Shown: one piece after another, positions 3,032-28,939 of the stretch
Numbering within the stretch: the first letter of the stretch is position 1
How the letters are laid out: every line of letters begins with the position of its first letter
IMG/VR virus record: IMGVR_UViG_3300031951_000777
Coordinates: 1 to 31,862 of that record
Direction: 5' to 3' (one strand)
Source: a virus
Lineage: Duplodnaviria > Caudoviricetes
Length of the DNA: 31,862 nt
The notes under the pieces: model-generated
Database searches by the model: none
What the model was told of the DNA's origin: nothing
Seen by the model: the letters and a program-made list of their open reading frames with translations, nothing else
Program-made: the position numbers and the translations under genes

Positions 3032-3883
3032 TTAGACCGTCGGGCGACACGTAACATCAACGCCGCCCCGAGCGCGTGGTGTTAAATCAAGCCAGATGCC
3101 ACCAAGTGATTTTGGCATTACGATGCGCTCCACTGCCCATCCGCCAGTGCCACCAAACTCTTGCTTGTAAGTGCCGGTCTGCAGGTGCCAACGCTGCTCA
3201 ACCCATGCTTTGCCGTTATCGCTGATGCGATAGCACGGATGCGCCACGATGCTGCGTTCGTGGTTGTGACCGTTTAATACGATGTCAGCATCAGGTGCGA
3301 TCTGCGCATAGCGCCCGCCGCCCATCGTGCCCTTGGTGACAATACCGCCCCATGCACCATGGTGGAAGAACAACGTGCAGCGGCGGACGCCGCCACCTTC
3401 ACGCTCAAAGACAAAGCGCACAAATCCTTGATAGCCCATGTGCTCAGTGACTGCGCCATCGTTGCGCATGAGCCGGACTACGTTTTCTAGTGGGTCGATC
3501 TCTTGATTGTTGAGCACGGCAGTTTCGTGGTTGCCGTCACCCATCATCAGGATCATCTCGCCGTAGGGGTTCAGGAAATCCGCTGACTCACGAAAAACCA
3601 GATCAAAGTAGTTGCCGCCTAAGTGCTCTGGCCTGATGTCGCCTTTGCTGCCGCGACGATCTTTCTTGCCTTGCATCAAGCACATCACATCACCAAAGAA
3701 CAATGCCTTGCCACCGATGGACTTGCACTCTTCTAAATGTTGCTTGAGCAATCCACGGTTGCACTTTGGATTGTCTAGGTGAATGTCAGACGCTAGCAGG
3801 AATGTGACTGGTTCCTTGACGCTGGTGTAAGGAATGCGCACCTCTAGCAGCTCTGGCGATAATCGCGTGGATGTAATCGCCAT
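3032..3883 (-). CDS. Calcineurin-like metallophosphoesterase
   Basis: All five motifs are present: SDIH, GD, GNHE, HHG, GHNH. Confidence 0.9.
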   Translation of the reverse strand: MAITSTRLSPELLEVRIPYTSVKEPVTFLLASDIHLDNPKCNRGLLKQHLEECKSIGGKALFFGDVMCLMQGKKDRRGSKGDIRPEHLGGNYFDLVFRESADFLNPYGEMILMMGDGNHETAVLNNQEIDPLENVVRLMRNDGAVTEHMGYQGFVRFVFEREGGGVRRCTLFFHHGAWGGIVTKGTMGGGRYAQIAPDADIVLNGHNHERSIVAHPCYRISDNGKAWVEQRWHLQTGTYKQEFGGTGGWAVERIVMPKSLGGIWLDLTPRARGGVDVTCRPTV

Positions 3884-3907: not shown

Positions 3908-3913
3908 AGTCTA
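3908..3913 (-). promoter_or_regulatory. Putative -10 element TAGACT
   Basis: Begins at the endolysin TAG stop; 24 nt upstream of ATG 3883. Confidence 0.45.
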
Positions 3914-4969
3914 GTAATCCCAACGCACTCTGGGCTTGCCGCGTCGCACCCCTAAATGCACAAATCCTTTAGGTGCGCCGTAGCCGAGTGAATAGGGCCA
4001 GTGATCATCGCACCAATCCTGCACGTGGTTGATGTTGACCTCGCGGATGTAAAAATCAACAGCTCCGACATTGGGCGCATCGTATAGGTGCTCGCTACCA
4101 CTAGCCCCTCCGACTGCTGCATTGATGGCACGCGGACGGTAGCCACTTGTAATCACAACAGGCTTGCCGCCAAACCTAACGCGAGCACGCTCAAGAAATG
4201 CCGCTAGCTCTGCTGCCGTGTCGAGCTGATATTGATGGTCAAAGCGTCGTGCTTCTTGAAACAATGCAAACTCTCCGAGCTGCACATGCGGCGTAATGCG
4301 CGCAGTGAAGGCGCTATCCGTGCTGAGCTTGGCCGGATCCTGTTGCTGCTCACCAGCCCATAGCCTGCCTTCTGCGCGGCGACGACGCAGCAAGCCTGCC
4401 TCTACGGCACTGCCTGGATTGCGGTATAGCTCCATTGCCTCTGGTACTGCTGCCCAATCCTTATCCCGCAAGCATCTGCTGATGGTCTCAAAGCCAGCGC
4501 TGCCGTAAAAGCCAGCGCCAAGGTTGTAGGCAAATGACAGCAACGCACATTGCTTGTTGCCGCTCATTGCACCCCAAAAAGGCACGCTGCTGCGGAGCTT
4601 TTCTGCAATGCGCTCTACTTCAACATCAAGCAATTGATCGGCGTCAATCACAGTAATCTTGTCACCGCGTTGCACCTTGCGGCCATCTGGATAGCGCGTG
4701 GTGCCATAGCCGATGGTTGCTACATCCCATCCATGTAGTGGATCGGGGTAGGCGCTTAGGTGCACGCCCTCAAACTCTTTAATGAGTTTTACCGCTGCGT
4801 CATAATTATGCAACTTGCCGCCAGCCTGCCAAGTCTTGTACCATGCTTGGCTGCGATCAAACACTTGCGGCGCTGTTTTTATTAGCTCTGCCTCAAGCTC
4901 AGACACCGCCGCCATTTGATGCGGTGTGCCGTGCTTGTAATACTTAAACAGATCGGATAGCTTGATCAT
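3911..4969 (-). CDS. Endolysin: GH24 lysozyme fused to a peptidase M15 domain
   Basis: EFEG...AYPD...TIGYG, FAYNLG and GLLRRRRAE (GH24), then SGYR, SEH, AVD and FVHL (M15 zinc ligands H-D-H). Confidence 0.92.
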   Translation of the reverse strand: MIKLSDLFKYYKHGTPHQMAAVSELEAELIKTAPQVFDRSQAWYKTWQAGGKLHNYDAAVKLIKEFEGVHLSAYPDPLHGWDVATIGYGTTRYPDGRKVQRGDKITVIDADQLLDVEVERIAEKLRSSVPFWGAMSGNKQCALLSFAYNLGAGFYGSAGFETISRCLRDKDWAAVPEAMELYRNPGSAVEAGLLRRRRAEGRLWAGEQQQDPAKLSTDSAFTARITPHVQLGEFALFQEARRFDHQYQLDTAAELAAFLERARVRFGGKPVVITSGYRPRAINAAVGGASGSEHLYDAPNVGAVDFYIREVNINHVQDWCDDHWPYSLGYGAPKGFVHLGVRRGKPRVRWDY

Positions 4970-18689: not shown

Positions 18690-19042
18690 TTTTTTGCTTC
18701 TTCAATGTTGGCTTCACCGCCAAGGCCAAACAGGAATAGCTCTAGTTCGTTCAGTACACGCTCAGGCAGCTCTCGTTGCAGCTTGGCAGCATCAGCAGCG
18801 GCGAATGCCTTGGTGCCATTTTCAAGCTCTGCCATCTGGCACAGCATCTGCGTGCTGATCTCTAGCGCCTCATCAGAACCGGCAAGCGTAGTTGCCTTCT
18901 TGCGATCAGCACGGGTAATGGGCTTGAAATACAGATCCAGCACCGCATCGCCAGCGTCATTGGTGACGCTGAATTTACGGCGCTGGTTCAGATCAAAAGC
19001 ACCCGTGAGTAGATCAACCGGGCGCTGTGTGTTGGCAGGCAT
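18683..19042 (-). CDS. G: Tail assembly chaperone G
   Basis: 119 aa between tail tube and tape measure, ending EEAKND* at a slippery sequence. Confidence 0.85.
   Translation of the reverse strand: MPANTQRPVDLLTGAFDLNQRRKFSVTNDAGDAVLDLYFKPITRADRKKATTLAGSDEALEISTQMLCQMAELENGTKAFAAADAAKLQRELPERVLNELELFLFGLGGEANIEEAKND
18689..18695 (-). other. Programmed -1 ribosomal frameshift site A AAA AAC
   Basis: GCA AAA AAC GAC TAG: an in-frame X XXY YYZ heptamer one codon before the G stop. Confidence 0.88.
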
Positions 19043-19461
19043 CAGATGCTAAGTGTGAGAGTACCGCTTGAGACGAAGTTAATCGTCACAATCTCGATCT
19101 CGCCAACCGTAGCACCGTATTCAGTGCTCGTCACCACAATGGTGCCCGTGATCTTCTTGCCGCCGGTCTCATCCAGATACAGCTCAACGGCTGCATCGGC
19201 TTCATCAGTGGCTTGGTTAGCGTCCTTGATCAGATCCAGCTTGTCGCCAGATCCAGGCGCGTCGTACATCACCTCAATGGTGCCAGAACCGCTGATTAAG
19301 CCGCCCACGTTGGCGCGATAGGTAGCGCCATGAGAGGTTGCGTCGTACGACTCCTTTTCAACAGTCATACTCCAAGACCGCACTGCTGCGATCTCGGAAA
19401 GACCACCACTGCCAGCCTTATCAAAGAAGACCGTGCCTTGTTGCCCGCGATAGAAAGCCAT
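19042..19461 (-). CDS. Tail tube protein, paralog 2
   Basis: MAFYRGQQG...RSWSMTVEKES.D.T..GATYRANVGGLISGSGT; located just before G. Confidence 0.8.
   Translation of the reverse strand: MAFYRGQQGTVFFDKAGSGGLSEIAAVRSWSMTVEKESYDATSHGATYRANVGGLISGSGTIEVMYDAPGSGDKLDLIKDANQATDEADAAVELYLDETGGKKITGTIVVTSTEYGATVGEIEIVTINFVSSGTLTLSI
19289..19320. repeat. 32-bp exact direct repeat, copy 1
   Basis: CCGCTGATTAAGCCGCCCACGTTGGCGCGATA, identical to 19711-19742. Confidence 0.95.
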
Positions 19462-19463
19462 GA

Positions 19464-19880
19464 TCAGATGTCCAGCGAAATGGTTCCGTTGGTCACGAAG
19501 TTCAAAGTAATGACTTCGATCTCGCCTACGGTGGCAGAATACTCAGCCGAAGTGATCACGCCGTCAAAGCTAATCTTCTTGGTGCCGCTGGTATCAAGGT
19601 ACAGCTCAAACAGAGCCTCACCAGCATCGTTAGCAGTGTTGATGTGCTCGATGAAGACGTTAGTCTCATCGGCGCTGCTTGCGGTGTAAAGGATCTCGCA
19701 AGTGCCGCTGCCGCTGATTAAGCCGCCCACGTTGGCGCGATATGTAGCGCCTAGCGCCGTGGTGTCGAGCGATTCTTTCTCGACAGTCAGCGACCACGAG
19801 CGGGTGCTAGTGATGGTTGCTGCAGTAGTGCCAGCATCGTCAAACTTGACGCTGCCTTGCTGCCCTCGGTAAAAAGCCAT
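19464..19880 (-). CDS. Tail tube protein, paralog 1
   Basis: Same motifs as paralog 2 and colinear over the full length. Confidence 0.8.
   Translation of the reverse strand: MAFYRGQQGSVKFDDAGTTAATITSTRSWSLTVEKESLDTTALGATYRANVGGLISGSGTCEILYTASSADETNVFIEHINTANDAGEALFELYLDTSGTKKISFDGVITSAEYSATVGEIEVITLNFVTNGTISLDI
19711..19742. repeat. 32-bp exact direct repeat, copy 2
   Basis: Identical to 19289-19320; after one mismatch, 8 further bases (GTAGCGCC) also match. Confidence 0.95.
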
Positions 19881-19882
19881 GG

Positions 19883-20308
19883 CTAGAGATCCTCGAAGGT
19901 TTCAAAGGTCATTCTGACCTGAGTTTGGAAGTAACCCTCAGGAGCTGGCGCAGCCACCACCTCTGGGCCAGTTGGCGGGTCAAAATGAACACCGCTCACT
20001 ATGACCCTATTGTAAAGGTCACGAATGCGTTTGCCGATCGTGTAGTTAGCGCCAGATCCTACGCCTACTGCAGTAAAGATATTGACCACGATCACGCCAA
20101 TCACGCTATTGCTGCTGCCCGTGCTGCCACCCATCGTGAGAAAGTTGTTGTTGCCAAAACTCACTAGGCATTGCACCCACGAGCTACCGGGCGTTGGCAT
20201 GTAGGGCTGATTATGAAATACCACCGGCAGAACTGGCGCTTGCGTTAGCTCAGCCGCCAGCCGTGACTCAATGGTTGCGCGTATGGTGTTCAGGTTGACG
20301 GCTGCCAT
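19883..20308 (-). CDS. Tail terminator-like protein
   Basis: 141 aa immediately before the tail tube genes; IRATIESRL...HNQPY.P...WV...G.I.VNIF...G.G pattern. Confidence 0.7.
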   Translation of the reverse strand: MAAVNLNTIRATIESRLAAELTQAPVLPVVFHNQPYMPTPGSSWVQCLVSFGNNNFLTMGGSTGSSNSVIGVIVVNIFTAVGVGSGANYTIGKRIRDLYNRVIVSGVHFDPPTGPEVVAAPAPEGYFQTQVRMTFETFEDL

Positions 20309-23125: not shown

Positions 23126-24157
23126 TCAATCGAAGTTGGAGGTGTTGGTGGCACGCACGATGCCGAGGTTCTTCAGCTCGTACACCTTCGACCAGTTGCT
23201 CACGGTCTCCAGTTGAGCGCGAGTCGGGTTGGTGGTGGTCACTCCCCACTTAGCGCCGACCGGGTGATAGCAGTAGTGCAGGTCAATCGACATGGCATCG
23301 CTCTTGGCGAGGATGTCACGATCGGTTTCGGTCTGCATTGCCATCTGCTCACCGCTGGCGACAGCGCCTTGAGTGAAGAAGTAGGTGGCATACTCGGTCG
23401 AAGAGCCGCTGCCTTCGGTTTGCACGTCGTCAGACACGATCACACGCAGACCCATGTAGGTAGGAACAGTGGGATTGCCATAGGCACCAGCAATGCTGCC
23501 ACCAACGAAATCAGTCACCGAAGAGGTCAGACGGGCGTCGGTCTCGGTCACATAATCGATAGCCTTGCGCTCAACCAGGTCGTAATAGACCTTGCTGTGC
23601 ATTGCAACGGCAGCGAGCTTGTCACCTTGATCACCCAGCAGGCTGCGGGCTTCAGCAACGTGACGAGGCGACAGGGTGGTAGGGGTATCACCCGATTCGC
23701 CGTCGATGGTCAGGCCAAAGAAAGCAGCAGAGCTGGAGGTGGTGCCGAGTGTGCCGAACACACCGCTTAGGCAGGACAGCAGATCCTTTTGGCGCTGGTT
23801 AGCGATGTAATCAGCGATCTTGGCGCCGATAGCGGCCATCGGGTCAGAACCAGCAGCAAGGGCTGCAAGGTCACGAGCCTCAAAGGCGCGGCCACGGTGC
23901 AGGATCACGCCGACTTGCTTGTCAGCGGTGATTTTGCCGGGGGTCAGGGAGGAGCTATCGGTCAGCACCTCGAAGTCACCGGAAAGATTGGCTTTCCAGA
24001 AGGGGACGTTGATAAAATCACCACCCTCGGTAGCGTTCAACTCCGCCATGGGCTGCACCACGCCGCTAGCCAAGAAGGCATCGCGCTGAGTGGTTTGCTC
24101 AATAACGTACGGAGTAAAAATCTCGGGGATGATGATGTCAGAGCGAAGAGTCGCCAT
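23126..24157 (-). CDS. Major capsid protein
   Basis: 343 aa after the scaffold; T.RSDIIIPEIFTPY, GG.FINVPFW, AGSDPMAAI, MHSKVY, YMGLRVIVSDD, ETDRDIL, HPVG..W, NW.KVY. Confidence 0.93.
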   Translation of the reverse strand: MATLRSDIIIPEIFTPYVIEQTTQRDAFLASGVVQPMAELNATEGGDFINVPFWKANLSGDFEVLTDSSSLTPGKITADKQVGVILHRGRAFEARDLAALAAGSDPMAAIGAKIADYIANQRQKDLLSCLSGVFGTLGTTSSSAAFFGLTIDGESGDTPTTLSPRHVAEARSLLGDQGDKLAAVAMHSKVYYDLVERKAIDYVTETDARLTSSVTDFVGGSIAGAYGNPTVPTYMGLRVIVSDDVQTEGSGSSTEYATYFFTQGAVASGEQMAMQTETDRDILAKSDAMSIDLHYCYHPVGAKWGVTTTNPTRAQLETVSNWSKVYELKNLGIVRATNTSNFD

Positions 24158-24186
24158 GATGAATCACCTGGGATGTTTACGGGTGT

Positions 24187-24218
24187 GGGCGCAGCCCTAG
24201 GCTCAATGCGGCGCAGCC
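24187..24218 (-). promoter_or_regulatory. Two C(UGC)G triloop hairpins in the capsid 5' leader
   Basis: mRNA sense UGGC-UGC-GCCG (24219-24209) and GGGC-UGC-GCCC (24197-24187); GGCTGCGCC occurs twice, 22 nt apart. Confidence 0.6.
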
Positions 24219-24237
24219 ATCACGAGCAGACACTGAA

Positions 24238-24243
24238 ATACTA
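24238..24243 (-). promoter_or_regulatory. Putative -10 element TAGTAT for the capsid gene
   Basis: Begins at the scaffold TAG stop; 80 nt upstream of ATG 24157. Confidence 0.45.
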
Positions 24244-24915
24244 ACGGTTAGCTGCTGCCTTCATGCGCTCATAAAGATCACGGTCTGTACGGAACAGGCG
24301 TGATTGCTCGGTCAAGTTAAAGGTTTCGCGGCTGAATGGATTGCTCATGCCAGATGGGATGGCGCCACTGCTGCCGCTAGTTGGTGCACCGCTGCCCTGC
24401 GGCTTCGGCTGCTTTTGCATCCATGCGGGTAGCGTCTTGGCCCACTCGGCGACGGGTTTGCGCTCATAGCCGTCAACCACGACGACAGTGCCATCAGCTT
24501 CACGCTCGATGGATTCCGGCTTCAGCTTGGTCTTAAGCACCATGTCGGGGTCATGCACGATCTCGGCCAGTGCCGTGACTGCCGGCGTCACGAGTTCTAG
24601 CTCGCGGACTCGGGCTTCAAGTTCTGAGATGCGCTGGTCCTTTTGAGCCGTCGCCTCACGGAACTGCTGCTCCAGAGCCTGCCGGGCTTCTTGGTACTTG
24701 CCTTGTGATTCGAGCTGCTGCTGCTCGTAGTTGCGCTTGAACTCCAGCAGTTCATCAACATTTACTCCATCTGGCGCCTTGGATTTCTTTGCTGCACGCA
24801 GCTCTGCAATCAGTTCTTGATTCTTGCGTTCTAGCGCCTCAACACTGCGCTGCAGTGCGTCGGCAGTTGCACCCTCAGTAGCCGCAGGCTCTTTGGTTTG
24901 TTGTTCATCAGACAT
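24241..24915 (-). CDS. Capsid scaffolding protein
   Basis: Long charged coiled coil, PQGSGA linker and NPF...FNLTEQ C-terminal motif; immediately before the capsid gene. Confidence 0.85.
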   Translation of the reverse strand: MSDEQQTKEPAATEGATADALQRSVEALERKNQELIAELRAAKKSKAPDGVNVDELLEFKRNYEQQQLESQGKYQEARQALEQQFREATAQKDQRISELEARVRELELVTPAVTALAEIVHDPDMVLKTKLKPESIEREADGTVVVVDGYERKPVAEWAKTLPAWMQKQPKPQGSGAPTSGSSGAIPSGMSNPFSRETFNLTEQSRLFRTDRDLYERMKAAANR

Positions 24916-24933
24916 GGATAAGCCGCAGGCTTA
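24880..24933 (-). promoter_or_regulatory. Two C(UGC)G triloop hairpins flanking the scaffold start codon
   Basis: UAAGCC-UGC-GGCUUA (24933-24919), ending 3 nt before the AUG, and AGCC-UGC-GGCU (24890-24880) in codons 9-12. Confidence 0.65.
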
Positions 24934-24944
24934 ATTACGCTGTC

Positions 24945-24950
24945 ATCGTA
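24945..24950 (-). promoter_or_regulatory. Putative -10 element TACGAT for the scaffold gene
   Basis: GgTACGAT 29 nt upstream of ATG 24915. Confidence 0.45.
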
Positions 24951-24965
24951 CCAGCAGCCAGGACA

Positions 24966-25199
24966 ATGGCCCGCGAGTGGAATACACCAATCCGCGAACC
25001 TTGGAATCCGTTGATTAAGGAACTGCTAAATGCAATCGATCGCCATGAGCGGTTATATCGCCAAGATGGCAATGGCTGGCACGCTGCAAAAGCGCAAGAT
25101 CTGCGCTGGTATGTCGCAGAATTAAAGGATTGGATTCATTGCCAAGAGGCTACCACTTCTCCTTGTCAGCCCAATACGCAGCAGACATCTTGCCCTTAG
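24966..25199 (+). CDS. Hypothetical protein on the opposite strand within the head module
   Basis: Fills the 24916-25149 gap; Trp-rich helical sequence MAREWNTPIREPWNPLIKELLNAIDRH; AGGA just upstream. Confidence 0.7.
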   Translation: MAREWNTPIREPWNPLIKELLNAIDRHERLYRQDGNGWHAAKAQDLRWYVAELKDWIHCQEATTSPCQPNTQQTSCP

Positions 25200-25425
25200 C
25201 GATGTTGCTGGCATGACGCGCCTTGAATGATGCACGGCGTGCTGCTGCTGCTTTGGACTCGCCCTCGCGTGATGGACTGCCGCTAACTCCCTGCTGCCCG
25301 AAGCGGATCAGTTTTACCTTGTCGCCTTCCTTGGCGAGCACCGCGTGCGATTTGTTCGGATGCTTTGGCGTCCGCTTGGGCTTGTTGTAGCCGTCAAACT
25401 GCTCGCCGCGGTAGGTGATGCTCAT
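25150..25425 (-). CDS. Small basic phage protein, 91 aa
   Basis: GYNKPKRTPKHPNKSHAVLAK.G..VKLIRFGQQG...RRASFKARH...AAYWADKEKW. Confidence 0.85.
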   Translation of the reverse strand: MSITYRGEQFDGYNKPKRTPKHPNKSHAVLAKEGDKVKLIRFGQQGVSGSPSREGESKAAAARRASFKARHASNIAKGKMSAAYWADKEKW

Positions 25426-25583
25426 TTGCGCTTTGGTTTCTTTGCAGTCTTAGCAGCAGCCTTGAAGTCAGCAGCACTAGGACGATCAGGGTCACCCTTG
25501 CGTGCCATGCGCTCCTTGCTGCCAGCTTCAATGCGATTGCGCTTAGCGGCGATGTTGGCGTAAAGGCCAGGTTTCTTAGCCAT
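25422..25583 (-). CDS. Small basic protein, 53 aa (not in ORF track)
   Basis: [53 protein letters not shown]; TGATG/ATGA-coupled on both sides. Confidence 0.85.
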   Translation of the reverse strand: MAKKPGLYANIAAKRNRIEAGSKERMARKGDPDRPSAADFKAAAKTAKKPKRK

Positions 25584-25726
25584 CACTTTTTACCTTTGGG
25601 TTTGCGTGTTTTGCCAGCCTTGCTAAGCGCAATGGCGATGGCCTGCTTCTGCGGTTTGCCTGCCTTCATCTCAGCTTTGATGTTGGCCGAGATGGTCTTC
25701 TGAGAGCTACCCTTCTTTAACGGCAC
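25583..25726 (-). CDS. Small basic protein, 47 aa (not in ORF track)
   Basis: GTG 25726: [47 protein letters not shown]. Confidence 0.8.
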
Positions 25727-28615: not shown

Positions 28616-28621
28616 AGTTTA
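28616..28621 (-). promoter_or_regulatory. Putative -10 element TAAACT for the portal gene
   Basis: Begins at the AbrB TAA stop; 23 nt upstream of ATG 28592. Confidence 0.45.
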
Positions 28622-28939
28622 AGCAGCAGTCAGCGTAATGCTGTTGCCGCGTATCTTGATGTCAAACTCAGCGCCGGGTTCATAGCCCATCTCGCGCATG
28701 TAGCCGTCACCGATCTGCAGCTTGCCGTTGAATTGCACCTTGGCTTTATAGGTCAACTTGCGGCCTTTGCTAGCGGGCTTGCCGCCTAGGTCAACACCTT
28801 TGGCTTCCAGCAGCGCCTCATAAAACTGCGTGAATGCCAGACGATCCTTGATGAGGTAGCCGCAAGCGCGCACCAGTTCGGACTTAGGCGCATCGCCCAG
28901 TTCTTTGACCTTGGCGAGTAGTTCAGCACCCTTGAGCAT
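28619..28939 (-). CDS. Cyanobacterial AbrB-like transcriptional regulator
   Basis: L.GAELLAKVKELGD..KSELVRACGY...FYEALLEAKG and C-terminal GRKLTYKAKVQFNGKLQIG..Y..EMG.EPG.EF.I swapped-hairpin domain. Confidence 0.88.
   Translation of the reverse strand: MLKGAELLAKVKELGDAPKSELVRACGYLIKDRLAFTQFYEALLEAKGVDLGGKPASKGRKLTYKAKVQFNGKLQIGDGYMREMGYEPGAEFDIKIRGNSITLTAA

Follow-up and report, generated by a model that had tools for sequence, protein, structure and literature searches.

Paired hairpins at the scaffold and capsid starts of a cyanosiphovirus: a probable RNA operator with the scaffolding protein as its likely reader

What do four small hairpins with one and the same three-base loop do at the start regions of the scaffold and capsid genes of a phage, and what reads them? 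This question is raised by IMG/VR record IMGVR_UViG_3300031951_000777, of which positions 1 to 31,862 were analyzed (31,862 nucleotides (nt), the window). The window belongs to a KBS-S-2A/S-H1-like cyanosiphovirus, and the record represents about 80% of a complete genome. Two hairpins, H1 and H2, are found at the scaffold start, and two more, A and B, are found in the capsid leader. The element is probably a real and uncatalogued paired-hairpin RNA operator, with a probable reader and a testable recognition rule. It is likely that the four hairpins are two tandem RNA operators bound by the scaffold, which would repress its own translation and would promote or escort capsid synthesis.

Hairpins, relatives and loop types

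A scan confirmed that the four hairpins are present on the - strand, which is the mRNA strand (Table 1). C(UGC)G hairpins with stems of at least 4 number 7 on this strand, against 1.85 expected from 200 dinucleotide shuffles (maximum 6). The genome-wide count that had been proposed as a check thus shows enrichment, and this is stronger locally. The 760-nt scaffold-capsid region holds 4 such hairpins against 0.055 expected, and 0 of 5000 shuffles reach 4. Conservation is a stronger test than enrichment, because the pattern was picked post hoc.

Relatives were gathered in three ways: by scaffold homology, by the double-hairpin pattern, and by a capsid N-terminus pattern that is blind to the leader. 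Three cultured genomes were added. This gave 537 loci with a capsid start and 520 with a scaffold homologue. Part of the set was chosen via the UGC pattern, which inflates the UGC count and leaves agreement within the other loop classes unaffected. From 397 scaffolds, 105 representatives were kept at 90% identity. Of these, 98 have a YRY loop label (Y, pyrimidine; R, purine), two labels having been corrected after a miscall, and the seven with "other" loops were excluded from the coupling counts. The closest cultured phages are cyanophage KBS-S-2A and Synechococcus phage S-H1, both with a scaffold identity of 74-75%, and the capsid identity to KBS-S-2A is 86.6%. The Prochlorococcus phages MED4-184/P-HS2 are more distant cultured relatives (49.5%). 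The gene order is terminase, portal, gp7-like minor head protein, three small basic open reading frames (ORFs), scaffold, and SPP1 gp13-like capsid.

When leaders were compiled, as had been proposed, the hairpins were found to be kept in relatives and the loops to agree within a genome. Both capsid-leader hairpins were called in 268 of 288 distinct leaders, and 262 of the 268 have the same three-base loop in A and B: UGC (134), UAC (66), UGU (52), CGU (7), or UAU (3). The six leaders with differing loops were inspected, and five were miscalls and one was real. An AGC loop was found in hairpin A of three leaders. The distance from the A loop to the B loop is narrow, 17-22 nt in 89 of 97. All four hairpins were called in 167 of 276 distinct scaffold-start loci, with four identical loops in 161. 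The loop and its closing C-G pair had been described as fixed. This holds within the window but not across relatives, where the common form is Y-YRY-G, the closing pair of B is U-G in 37 of 96, and the loop is not always UGC.

The loop label changes at least 20 times on a tree of scaffold residues 23 onward and 28 times on a tree of residues 50 onward (105 representatives, FastTree). It is very improbable that the hairpins are generic 5'-end stabilizers or folding spacers without a reader, with loops that reflect ancestry and base composition. The hairpins do lie at predicted mRNA 5' ends, the common loop changes are all transitions, and the low-GC Prochlorococcus-type loci have the U-richest loop. 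However, four sites with different stems switch together 20-28 times, one copy is inside a coding sequence, and the loop classes have overlapping GC ranges (0.39-0.59, 0.46-0.58, and 0.36-0.62).

Stem pairing was examined at sites chosen by loop sequence and position alone, with pairing not required. Pairs 2-4 of H1 were formed in 61 of 61, and pair 3 is C-G in 34 and G-C in 27. Pair 2 of H2 was formed in 75 of 75, and five pair types occur there despite changes in the encoded residues. In close relatives, H2 moves from C-G to U-G to U-A with two amino-acid changes. Pairs 2-4 of B were formed in 96 of 96. Hairpin A is looser, its pairs being formed in 95, 83, and 62 of 96. In a sequence-only alignment of 66 leaders, picked for diversity from 100 candidates, 97.7% of the cells of B are paired, and two-sided changes are found in all 4 pairs, above 500 shuffles. 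The hairpins are conserved RNA-type elements, with pairing in the mRNA orientation maintained through compensatory and G-U changes. Across relatives, G-U outnumbers A-C by 63 to 10 in stem pairs 2-4 (56 of the 63 come from hairpin A), in agreement with the suggestion that the U-G pair of one window copy favors RNA.

The inverted repeats could instead act as DNA, either as extruded C-GNA-G mini-hairpins of the N4 type, as had been suggested, or as palindromic dimer sites. This is largely refuted and retains next to no probability. There are likenesses to the N4 hairpins, which also have a short stem and a three-base loop. The four window copies all read C-GCA-G on the template strand, promoter-like boxes adjoin them, and the candidate reader described below is zipper-like. 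According to passages of PMC4496689, the hairpins of the N4 virion RNA polymerase need a C:G closure and the loop bases G and A, and they lie upstream of +1, whereas here -10-like boxes precede the hairpins. The required loop and closure are missing in half of the relatives. C-GNA-G fits only 46 of 98 B loops, and a U-G closure is a C-A mismatch on the template. The arm sequences vary freely while staying complementary, unlike a duplex site. No ORF for a virion RNA polymerase was found in the window (about 80% complete), which encodes a sigma-70 factor instead, and the annotations of the three cultured relatives include no large virion polymerase. The N4-type idea was rejected because of the G-U pairs, which favor the RNA strand, and because the loops are incompatible with C-GNA-G.

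Table 1. Positions of the hairpins and associated features in the window.
Feature	Position	Strand	Basis or remark
Hairpin H1, UAAGCC-UGC-GGCUUA	24933-24919	-	ends 3 nt before scaffold AUG (24915)
Hairpin H2, AGCC-UGC-GGCU	24890-24880	-	scaffold codons 9-12
Hairpin A, core UGGC-UGC-GCCG	24219-24209	-	extended bulged stem 24201..24227; near predicted capsid mRNA 5' end
Hairpin B, GGGC-UGC-GCCC	24197-24187	-	loop 35-44 nt before capsid AUG
Head scaffolding protein gene, 224 amino acids (aa)	24241..24915	-	phrog_206, E 1.5e-22; S-H1 homologue annotated putative scaffold
Codons for scaffold residues 19-46, leucine-zipper-like helix	24778..24861	-	predicted RNA reader; AlphaFold2 helix 16-46
Major capsid protein gene, SPP1 gp13-like, 343 aa	23126..24157	-	phrog_247, E 8e-84; PF20036
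Extended -10-like box GnTAnnnT, 35 nt before scaffold AUG	24945..24952	-	predicted start of short-leader scaffold mRNA just before H1
GnTAnnnT box over scaffold stop codon	24238..24245	-	predicted separate capsid mRNA promoter
Shine-Dalgarno-like AGGUGA of capsid gene	24164..24171	-	sequence
Conserved GU(A/G)AAC, 5' strand of predicted helix	24175..24180	-	codon co-occurrence and predicted fold
3' strand of GUAAAC helix, capsid codons 13-15	24114..24120	-	predicted fold
Fifth copy, tail-terminator coding sequence	19946..19956	-	not part of the element (chance)
Further C(UGC)G hairpins	17547-17537 and previously unlisted 9989-9977	-	sequence scan

Loop type and the scaffold N-terminal helix

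The scaffold is the likely reader of the hairpins, because the loops change together and in step with a predicted helix near its N-terminus. The helix has zipper-like a/d positions in its heptad pattern (L21, V25, L28, N32, L35, and L39), with Asn at an a position. Column by column, the signal lies in scaffold residues 22-46, where residues 24, 29, 33, 37, and 38 track the loop type. The third loop base follows residues 24/29 and the second follows residues 33/37/38. Residue 38 is K with a middle A in 28 of 28 and E, D, or Q with a middle G in 70 of 70. Residue 29 is D or E with loops ending in C in 73 of 73 and R, K, or L with loops ending in U in 24 of 25, and this rule recurs across three different helix backgrounds. 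Side-chain hydrogen bonding would suggest an acid for C and G and a base for U.

Leave-one-out accuracy was 1.0 for residue 38 (98/98) and 0.98 for residue 29 (97/98), against baselines of 0.71 and 0.74. The best columns elsewhere reached 0.81/0.83 in the scaffold beyond residue 50, 0.81/0.84 in the capsid, and 0.84/0.83 in the gp7-like protein. Independent pairs on well-supported branches of the residue-50-onward tree stand at 9 of 9 (p 0.004) and 5 of 5 (p 0.06). One pair of loci, L545 and L264, is identical at 174 of 175 positions beyond residue 50 and at 14 of 28 in the helix. The leaders of the two are otherwise nearly identical but have different loops in both hairpins.

The rule was then fixed and applied to 177 later-fetched loci. 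A total of 125 were usable, giving 76 distinct helix/leader pairs, two of them without the helix. The full loop was predicted in 71 of 74 and positions 2-3 in 73 of 74. Two of the misses were at position 1 only (R37 instead of K37 with CGU), and one, L641, was a true exception. Among those less than 90% identical to any training scaffold, 19 of 20 were right in full and 20 of 20 at positions 2-3. Judging from these sequence comparisons, the scaffold probably binds the hairpins directly. The two-site RNA operator bound by scaffold, one of the options put forward in the original prediction, is well supported by the stem covariation, the concerted switching of the loops, and the residue-level coupling to the helix.

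It seems quite unlikely that some other factor (a host protein, the capsid, or a small basic protein) reads the loops and that the helix is co-inherited with the H1-H2 cassette or touches that factor. The helix, H1, and H2 do fit within 140 nt and are exchanged together in recombination, small lysine-rich genes are just upstream in most relatives, and the window is about 80% of the genome and may lack a relevant gene. However, A and B, at a distance of 600 nt, go with the helix and not with the scaffold sequence in between. Of the 19 representatives that lack H1 and H2, 18 also obey the helix rule, and therefore the coupling is not hitch-hiking with H2. For the 92 loci with a full capsid, 26 loop changes are required on the capsid tree versus 17 on the scaffold tree, and repeated switching between sister phages would be unexpected if a host protein were the reader. 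The small basic protein, once suggested as a reader, is not supported. None of the three basic genes was detected in 21 of 269 loci that have the gp7-like gene or in 6 of 66 representatives (a short-protein search, with misses possible). Their best columns predicted the loop poorly (0.77-0.89), and the second basic protein was uninformative (n 15).

The three small Lys/Arg-rich ORFs are at 25150-25726 in the window, between the gp7-like gene and the scaffold. Their combinations vary among relatives, and they have no Pfam match. For the scaffold itself, PF06810 was matched in 15 of 104 aligned relatives (E<=0.01), and the window's own scaffold has no match. A fold search with the scaffold model (predicted TM-score, pTM, 0.37) gave no match at E<=0.001.

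Signs of possible exchange can be seen at some of these loci. At L641 (1225-2080), the scaffold is 2 nt from that of L643 and the leader is identical to that of L500, as in a recombinant or an assembly chimera. At L510, there is a crossover between H1 and H2. Prochlorococcus-type loci (L146, L150, L158, L162, L556, and related) have UUGC/GUGC tetraloops and others together with a distinct helix type, extending the loop-helix coupling beyond YRY loops.

Placement on the messages and possible mode of action

The position of the hairpins can indicate how they act. In 74 of 102 representatives, a GnTAnnnT box lies 24-40 nt ahead of the scaffold AUG, versus 3 of 105 in a coding control. TAnnnT was found on the scaffold stop codon in 93 of 105 and GnTAnnnT in 83 of 105, and on the capsid stop in 1 and 0 of 92. 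The TA of TAnnnT is dictated by the stop codon, and the final T is not. With these predicted -10 boxes, one message would have H1 at its 5' end and a second message would have A there. The window encodes a sigma-70-family factor at 1764-2717 (regions 1.2, 2, 3, and 4), which is a candidate reader of these late boxes. No terminator-like site was found on the - strand in either leader, and the sole - strand site is inside the capsid gene. Public RNA libraries gave three weak matches, which are contigs only, mostly from other strains and without start or strand information. Directly upstream of the scaffold promoter-like box, a 77-aa ORF lies on the opposite strand (24966-25199). Its presence varies among relatives, and one RNA-library contig skips across this stretch, consistent with that.

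H1 had been described as sitting where a Shine-Dalgarno sequence would be. It does occupy that position, but it does not appear to hide such a sequence. A Shine-Dalgarno-like word precedes 1 scaffold start versus 66 capsid starts among the 105 representatives. In the capsid leader, the conserved GU(A/G)AAC is part of a predicted helix that would close over the capsid ribosome-binding site and AUG. GUAAAC occurs with UUU at Phe14 in 114 of 145 (UUU makes up 39% of Phe codons elsewhere), and its helix pair is broken in 31 of 145. GUGAAC occurs with UUC in 11 of 13 (33% elsewhere), and this group is essentially one clade.

From this placement a mode of action can be proposed. The scaffold could form a zipper dimer with two equivalent faces, one for each hairpin, as the heptad pattern suggests. 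Free scaffold on H1 and H2 would clamp the AUG between them, which has no Shine-Dalgarno sequence, and would shut down its own synthesis, as is reported for P22. Capsid assembly would consume scaffold and lift this self-repression. Scaffold on A and B might stabilize or license the structured capsid message, or it might wait beside the ribosome for nascent capsid. The balance is slightly in favor of bound scaffold stabilizing, licensing, or catching nascent capsid rather than blocking. A block is less likely because A and B are upstream of the ribosome footprint. The sign of the effect at the capsid is the weakest step of the model. Overall, the element may set the scaffold:capsid ratio.

It is unlikely, though somewhat less so than a different reader, that the scaffold represses both messages, or that the capsid pair is a sink that titrates scaffold. 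Such a joint brake would fit the same loop-helix coupling data. The capsid start is predicted to be folded shut, and an adjacent bound protein could stabilize this closure. However, the B loop is 35-44 nt from the AUG, and the initiation footprint usually falls short of this distance. A and B track the helix even where H1 and H2 are missing, which a decoy for pure self-repression would not need. Surplus scaffold would also signal a shortage of capsid, and repression of the capsid would then have the wrong sign.

Several observations weigh against the scaffold-bound operator or narrow it. Whole-region folding energies are ordinary (z -1.25 and -0.94). A control slid by -2 columns had a covariation score of 0.325, higher than the 0.294 of B, but with 69.7% paired cells versus 97.7%. 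Other loops, such as UUGC tetraloops, are carried by 17 of the 288 leaders, all of the Prochlorococcus type. Neither H1 nor H2 was called in 93 of 276 loci, mainly in the KBS-S-2A and Prochlorococcus-type clades, and therefore self-repression is not universal. The capsid pair is constant, whereas the scaffold pair is optional. The best portal column reached 0.94, in only 18 loci. L492 violates the residue-29 rule, and in L641, a single contig, the helix, H1, and H2 are of the UGU type whereas the loops of A and B are UGC. The helix is not rich in arginine. Its variants move as blocks, and residues 24/29 are also a predicted g-e' salt-bridge pair. Single-residue contacts are therefore only candidates. 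Forcing A and B left the predicted access of the capsid ribosome site unchanged (0.31 vs 0.31, 93 leaders), and therefore the element does not appear to be a simple RNA switch.

A broader reading can be offered tentatively, at a little under even chance. The scaffold may be a sequence-specific RNA regulator with a swappable zipper code, in which an acidic residue 29 would go with C, a basic residue 29 with U, Lys38 with A, an acidic residue 38 with G, and a basic residue 37 with C. Its dimers on tandem hairpins would silence the scaffold message and license or chaperone the capsid. Exchange of the cassette would give orthogonal operators, perhaps avoiding cross-control by co-infecting relatives.

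Known systems, distribution and neighboring features

Autoregulation by the P22 scaffold is the nearest known case. It has reportedly been cited since 1985, the paper named for translational autoregulation by the scaffolding protein (gp8) being that of Wyckoff and Casjens from that year. In a more recent preprint, the P22 scaffold N-terminus is described, in the passage seen here, as "implicated in translational autoregulation" (bioRxiv 10.1101/2022.12.13.520362). In both systems the scaffold would act on its own mRNA through its N-terminal part, which is indicated here by covariation only (residues 24-38). The target is at the scaffold's own translation start in both, and hairpins flank the P22 gene 8 start as H1 (3 nt before the AUG) and H2 (in the first codons) flank the start here. 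The P22 hairpins differ in having other, unequal loops, in contrast to the one defined loop found here. P22 gene 5 is without a leader, since the gene 8 stop overlaps the gene 5 start, whereas a second operator is present here on a separately promoted capsid leader. Swappable specificity types are found here, and the scaffold families differ (phrog_206/PF06810-like here).

ANTAR systems (EutV, AmiR, and NasR) have tandem leader hairpins read by a dimeric helical protein, according to passages of PMC3369931 and PMC8934654. The likeness is that a 5' leader has two short hairpins in tandem whose loops are equal, with narrow spacing here. ANTAR hairpins have hexaloops with A1 and G4 (passages of PMC3369931) and an overlapping intrinsic terminator, whereas here a three-base YRY loop is found on a Y-G closure with no terminator in either leader. 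Switching of the loop with the protein among close relatives is not encountered for ANTAR in the passages of these sources. The ANTAR domain (PF03861) had no match in 104 scaffolds or in 11 other window proteins.

Short hairpin loops at translation starts are also bound by CsrA/RsmE-type proteins, the MS2 coat protein, and T4 RegA, gp43, and gp32, and CsrA dimers take two hairpins. These operators differ from the present element in loop sequence, reader fold, and coupling to head assembly, and there is no GGA loop here.

The comparison with Rfam placed the element in no catalogued family. There was no match in the window (E<=1) or in 20 diverse relatives, and the 861-nt region gave two irrelevant weak matches at E<=10. 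GP20-a (RF02991) and GP20-b (RF03003) are structured RNAs that precede PF06810 (GP20) scaffold genes, the family matched by the 15 scaffolds noted above. RF02991 had no match at E<=10, and RF03003 had one 8.4-bit chance match at 3527-3540, which is not at the locus. Passages of Fremin et al. 2023 (PMC10690425) list 9 candidates before GP20 genes, 1 before a scaffold gene, and 9 before capsid genes. The main-text passages of Weinberg 2017 (PMC5737381) do not mention GP20 or capsid. The hairpin RNA may be among the candidates of either study, these having been compared by listing. The passages of these studies propose no reader. A literature search, in which subscription journals were thinly covered, turned up neither an operator nor a recognition surface that had been defined for a scaffold, and it gave no case of a scaffold site on the message of a capsid gene.

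The predictions supplied are an RNA site of 11 nt, a helix of 28 residues, and five specificity types found in nature, which can act as ready-made swap controls. If true, these would account for the matching of scaffold output to capsid output in abundant aquatic cyanophages. They would also provide a mechanism for uncatalogued hairpins ahead of scaffold or capsid genes, and a very small orthogonal peptide-RNA code for synthetic biology.

The element appears to be confined to this setting. In a scan of 120 loci with the double-hairpin pattern, 99 precede the capsid gene of this type and 108 follow the scaffold gene of this type. The few others are repeats or a methyltransferase leader, and thus the scan showed no spread to unrelated genes. 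The latter is at an unrelated locus (L259:1470-1575), where three CUGCG words, some in hairpins, precede a DNA methyltransferase gene, probably by chance. The Y-YRY-G pair was not seen in SPP1, Javan117, SS5, maay_LB1, PhiJL001, CA8, TIVP-H6, or P22. A custom covariance model matches these distant phages only weakly, and in six cases only on the capsid coding part. In the Queuovirinae, Vibrio phage CA8 (L598:345-435, 1278-1438) and Pseudomonas phage TIVP-H6 (L599:425-515, 1317-1477) have hairpins with four-base AUGG/AUGA loops in the leaders of both scaffold and capsid. A comparable heptad stretch is found at the N-terminus of their scaffolds, as in a parallel system with a different loop.

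The fifth C(UGC)G copy, near the first tail-tube gene, had been listed with the other four. It is kept in only 5 of 68 tail-terminator ends, all from relatives at least 84% identical, and was dropped from the element. As further sites, the fifth hairpin and any cognate hairpins around the starts of 15 other late genes were considered and rejected, with no excess over non-cognate YRY loops. The tail-tube genes are two tandem paralogues (19042-19880), both of phrog_10528. An AbrB-like transcriptional regulator gene (28619-28939) is present between the terminase and the portal, and the endolysin (3911-4969) has a phage lysozyme and a peptidase M15 domain.

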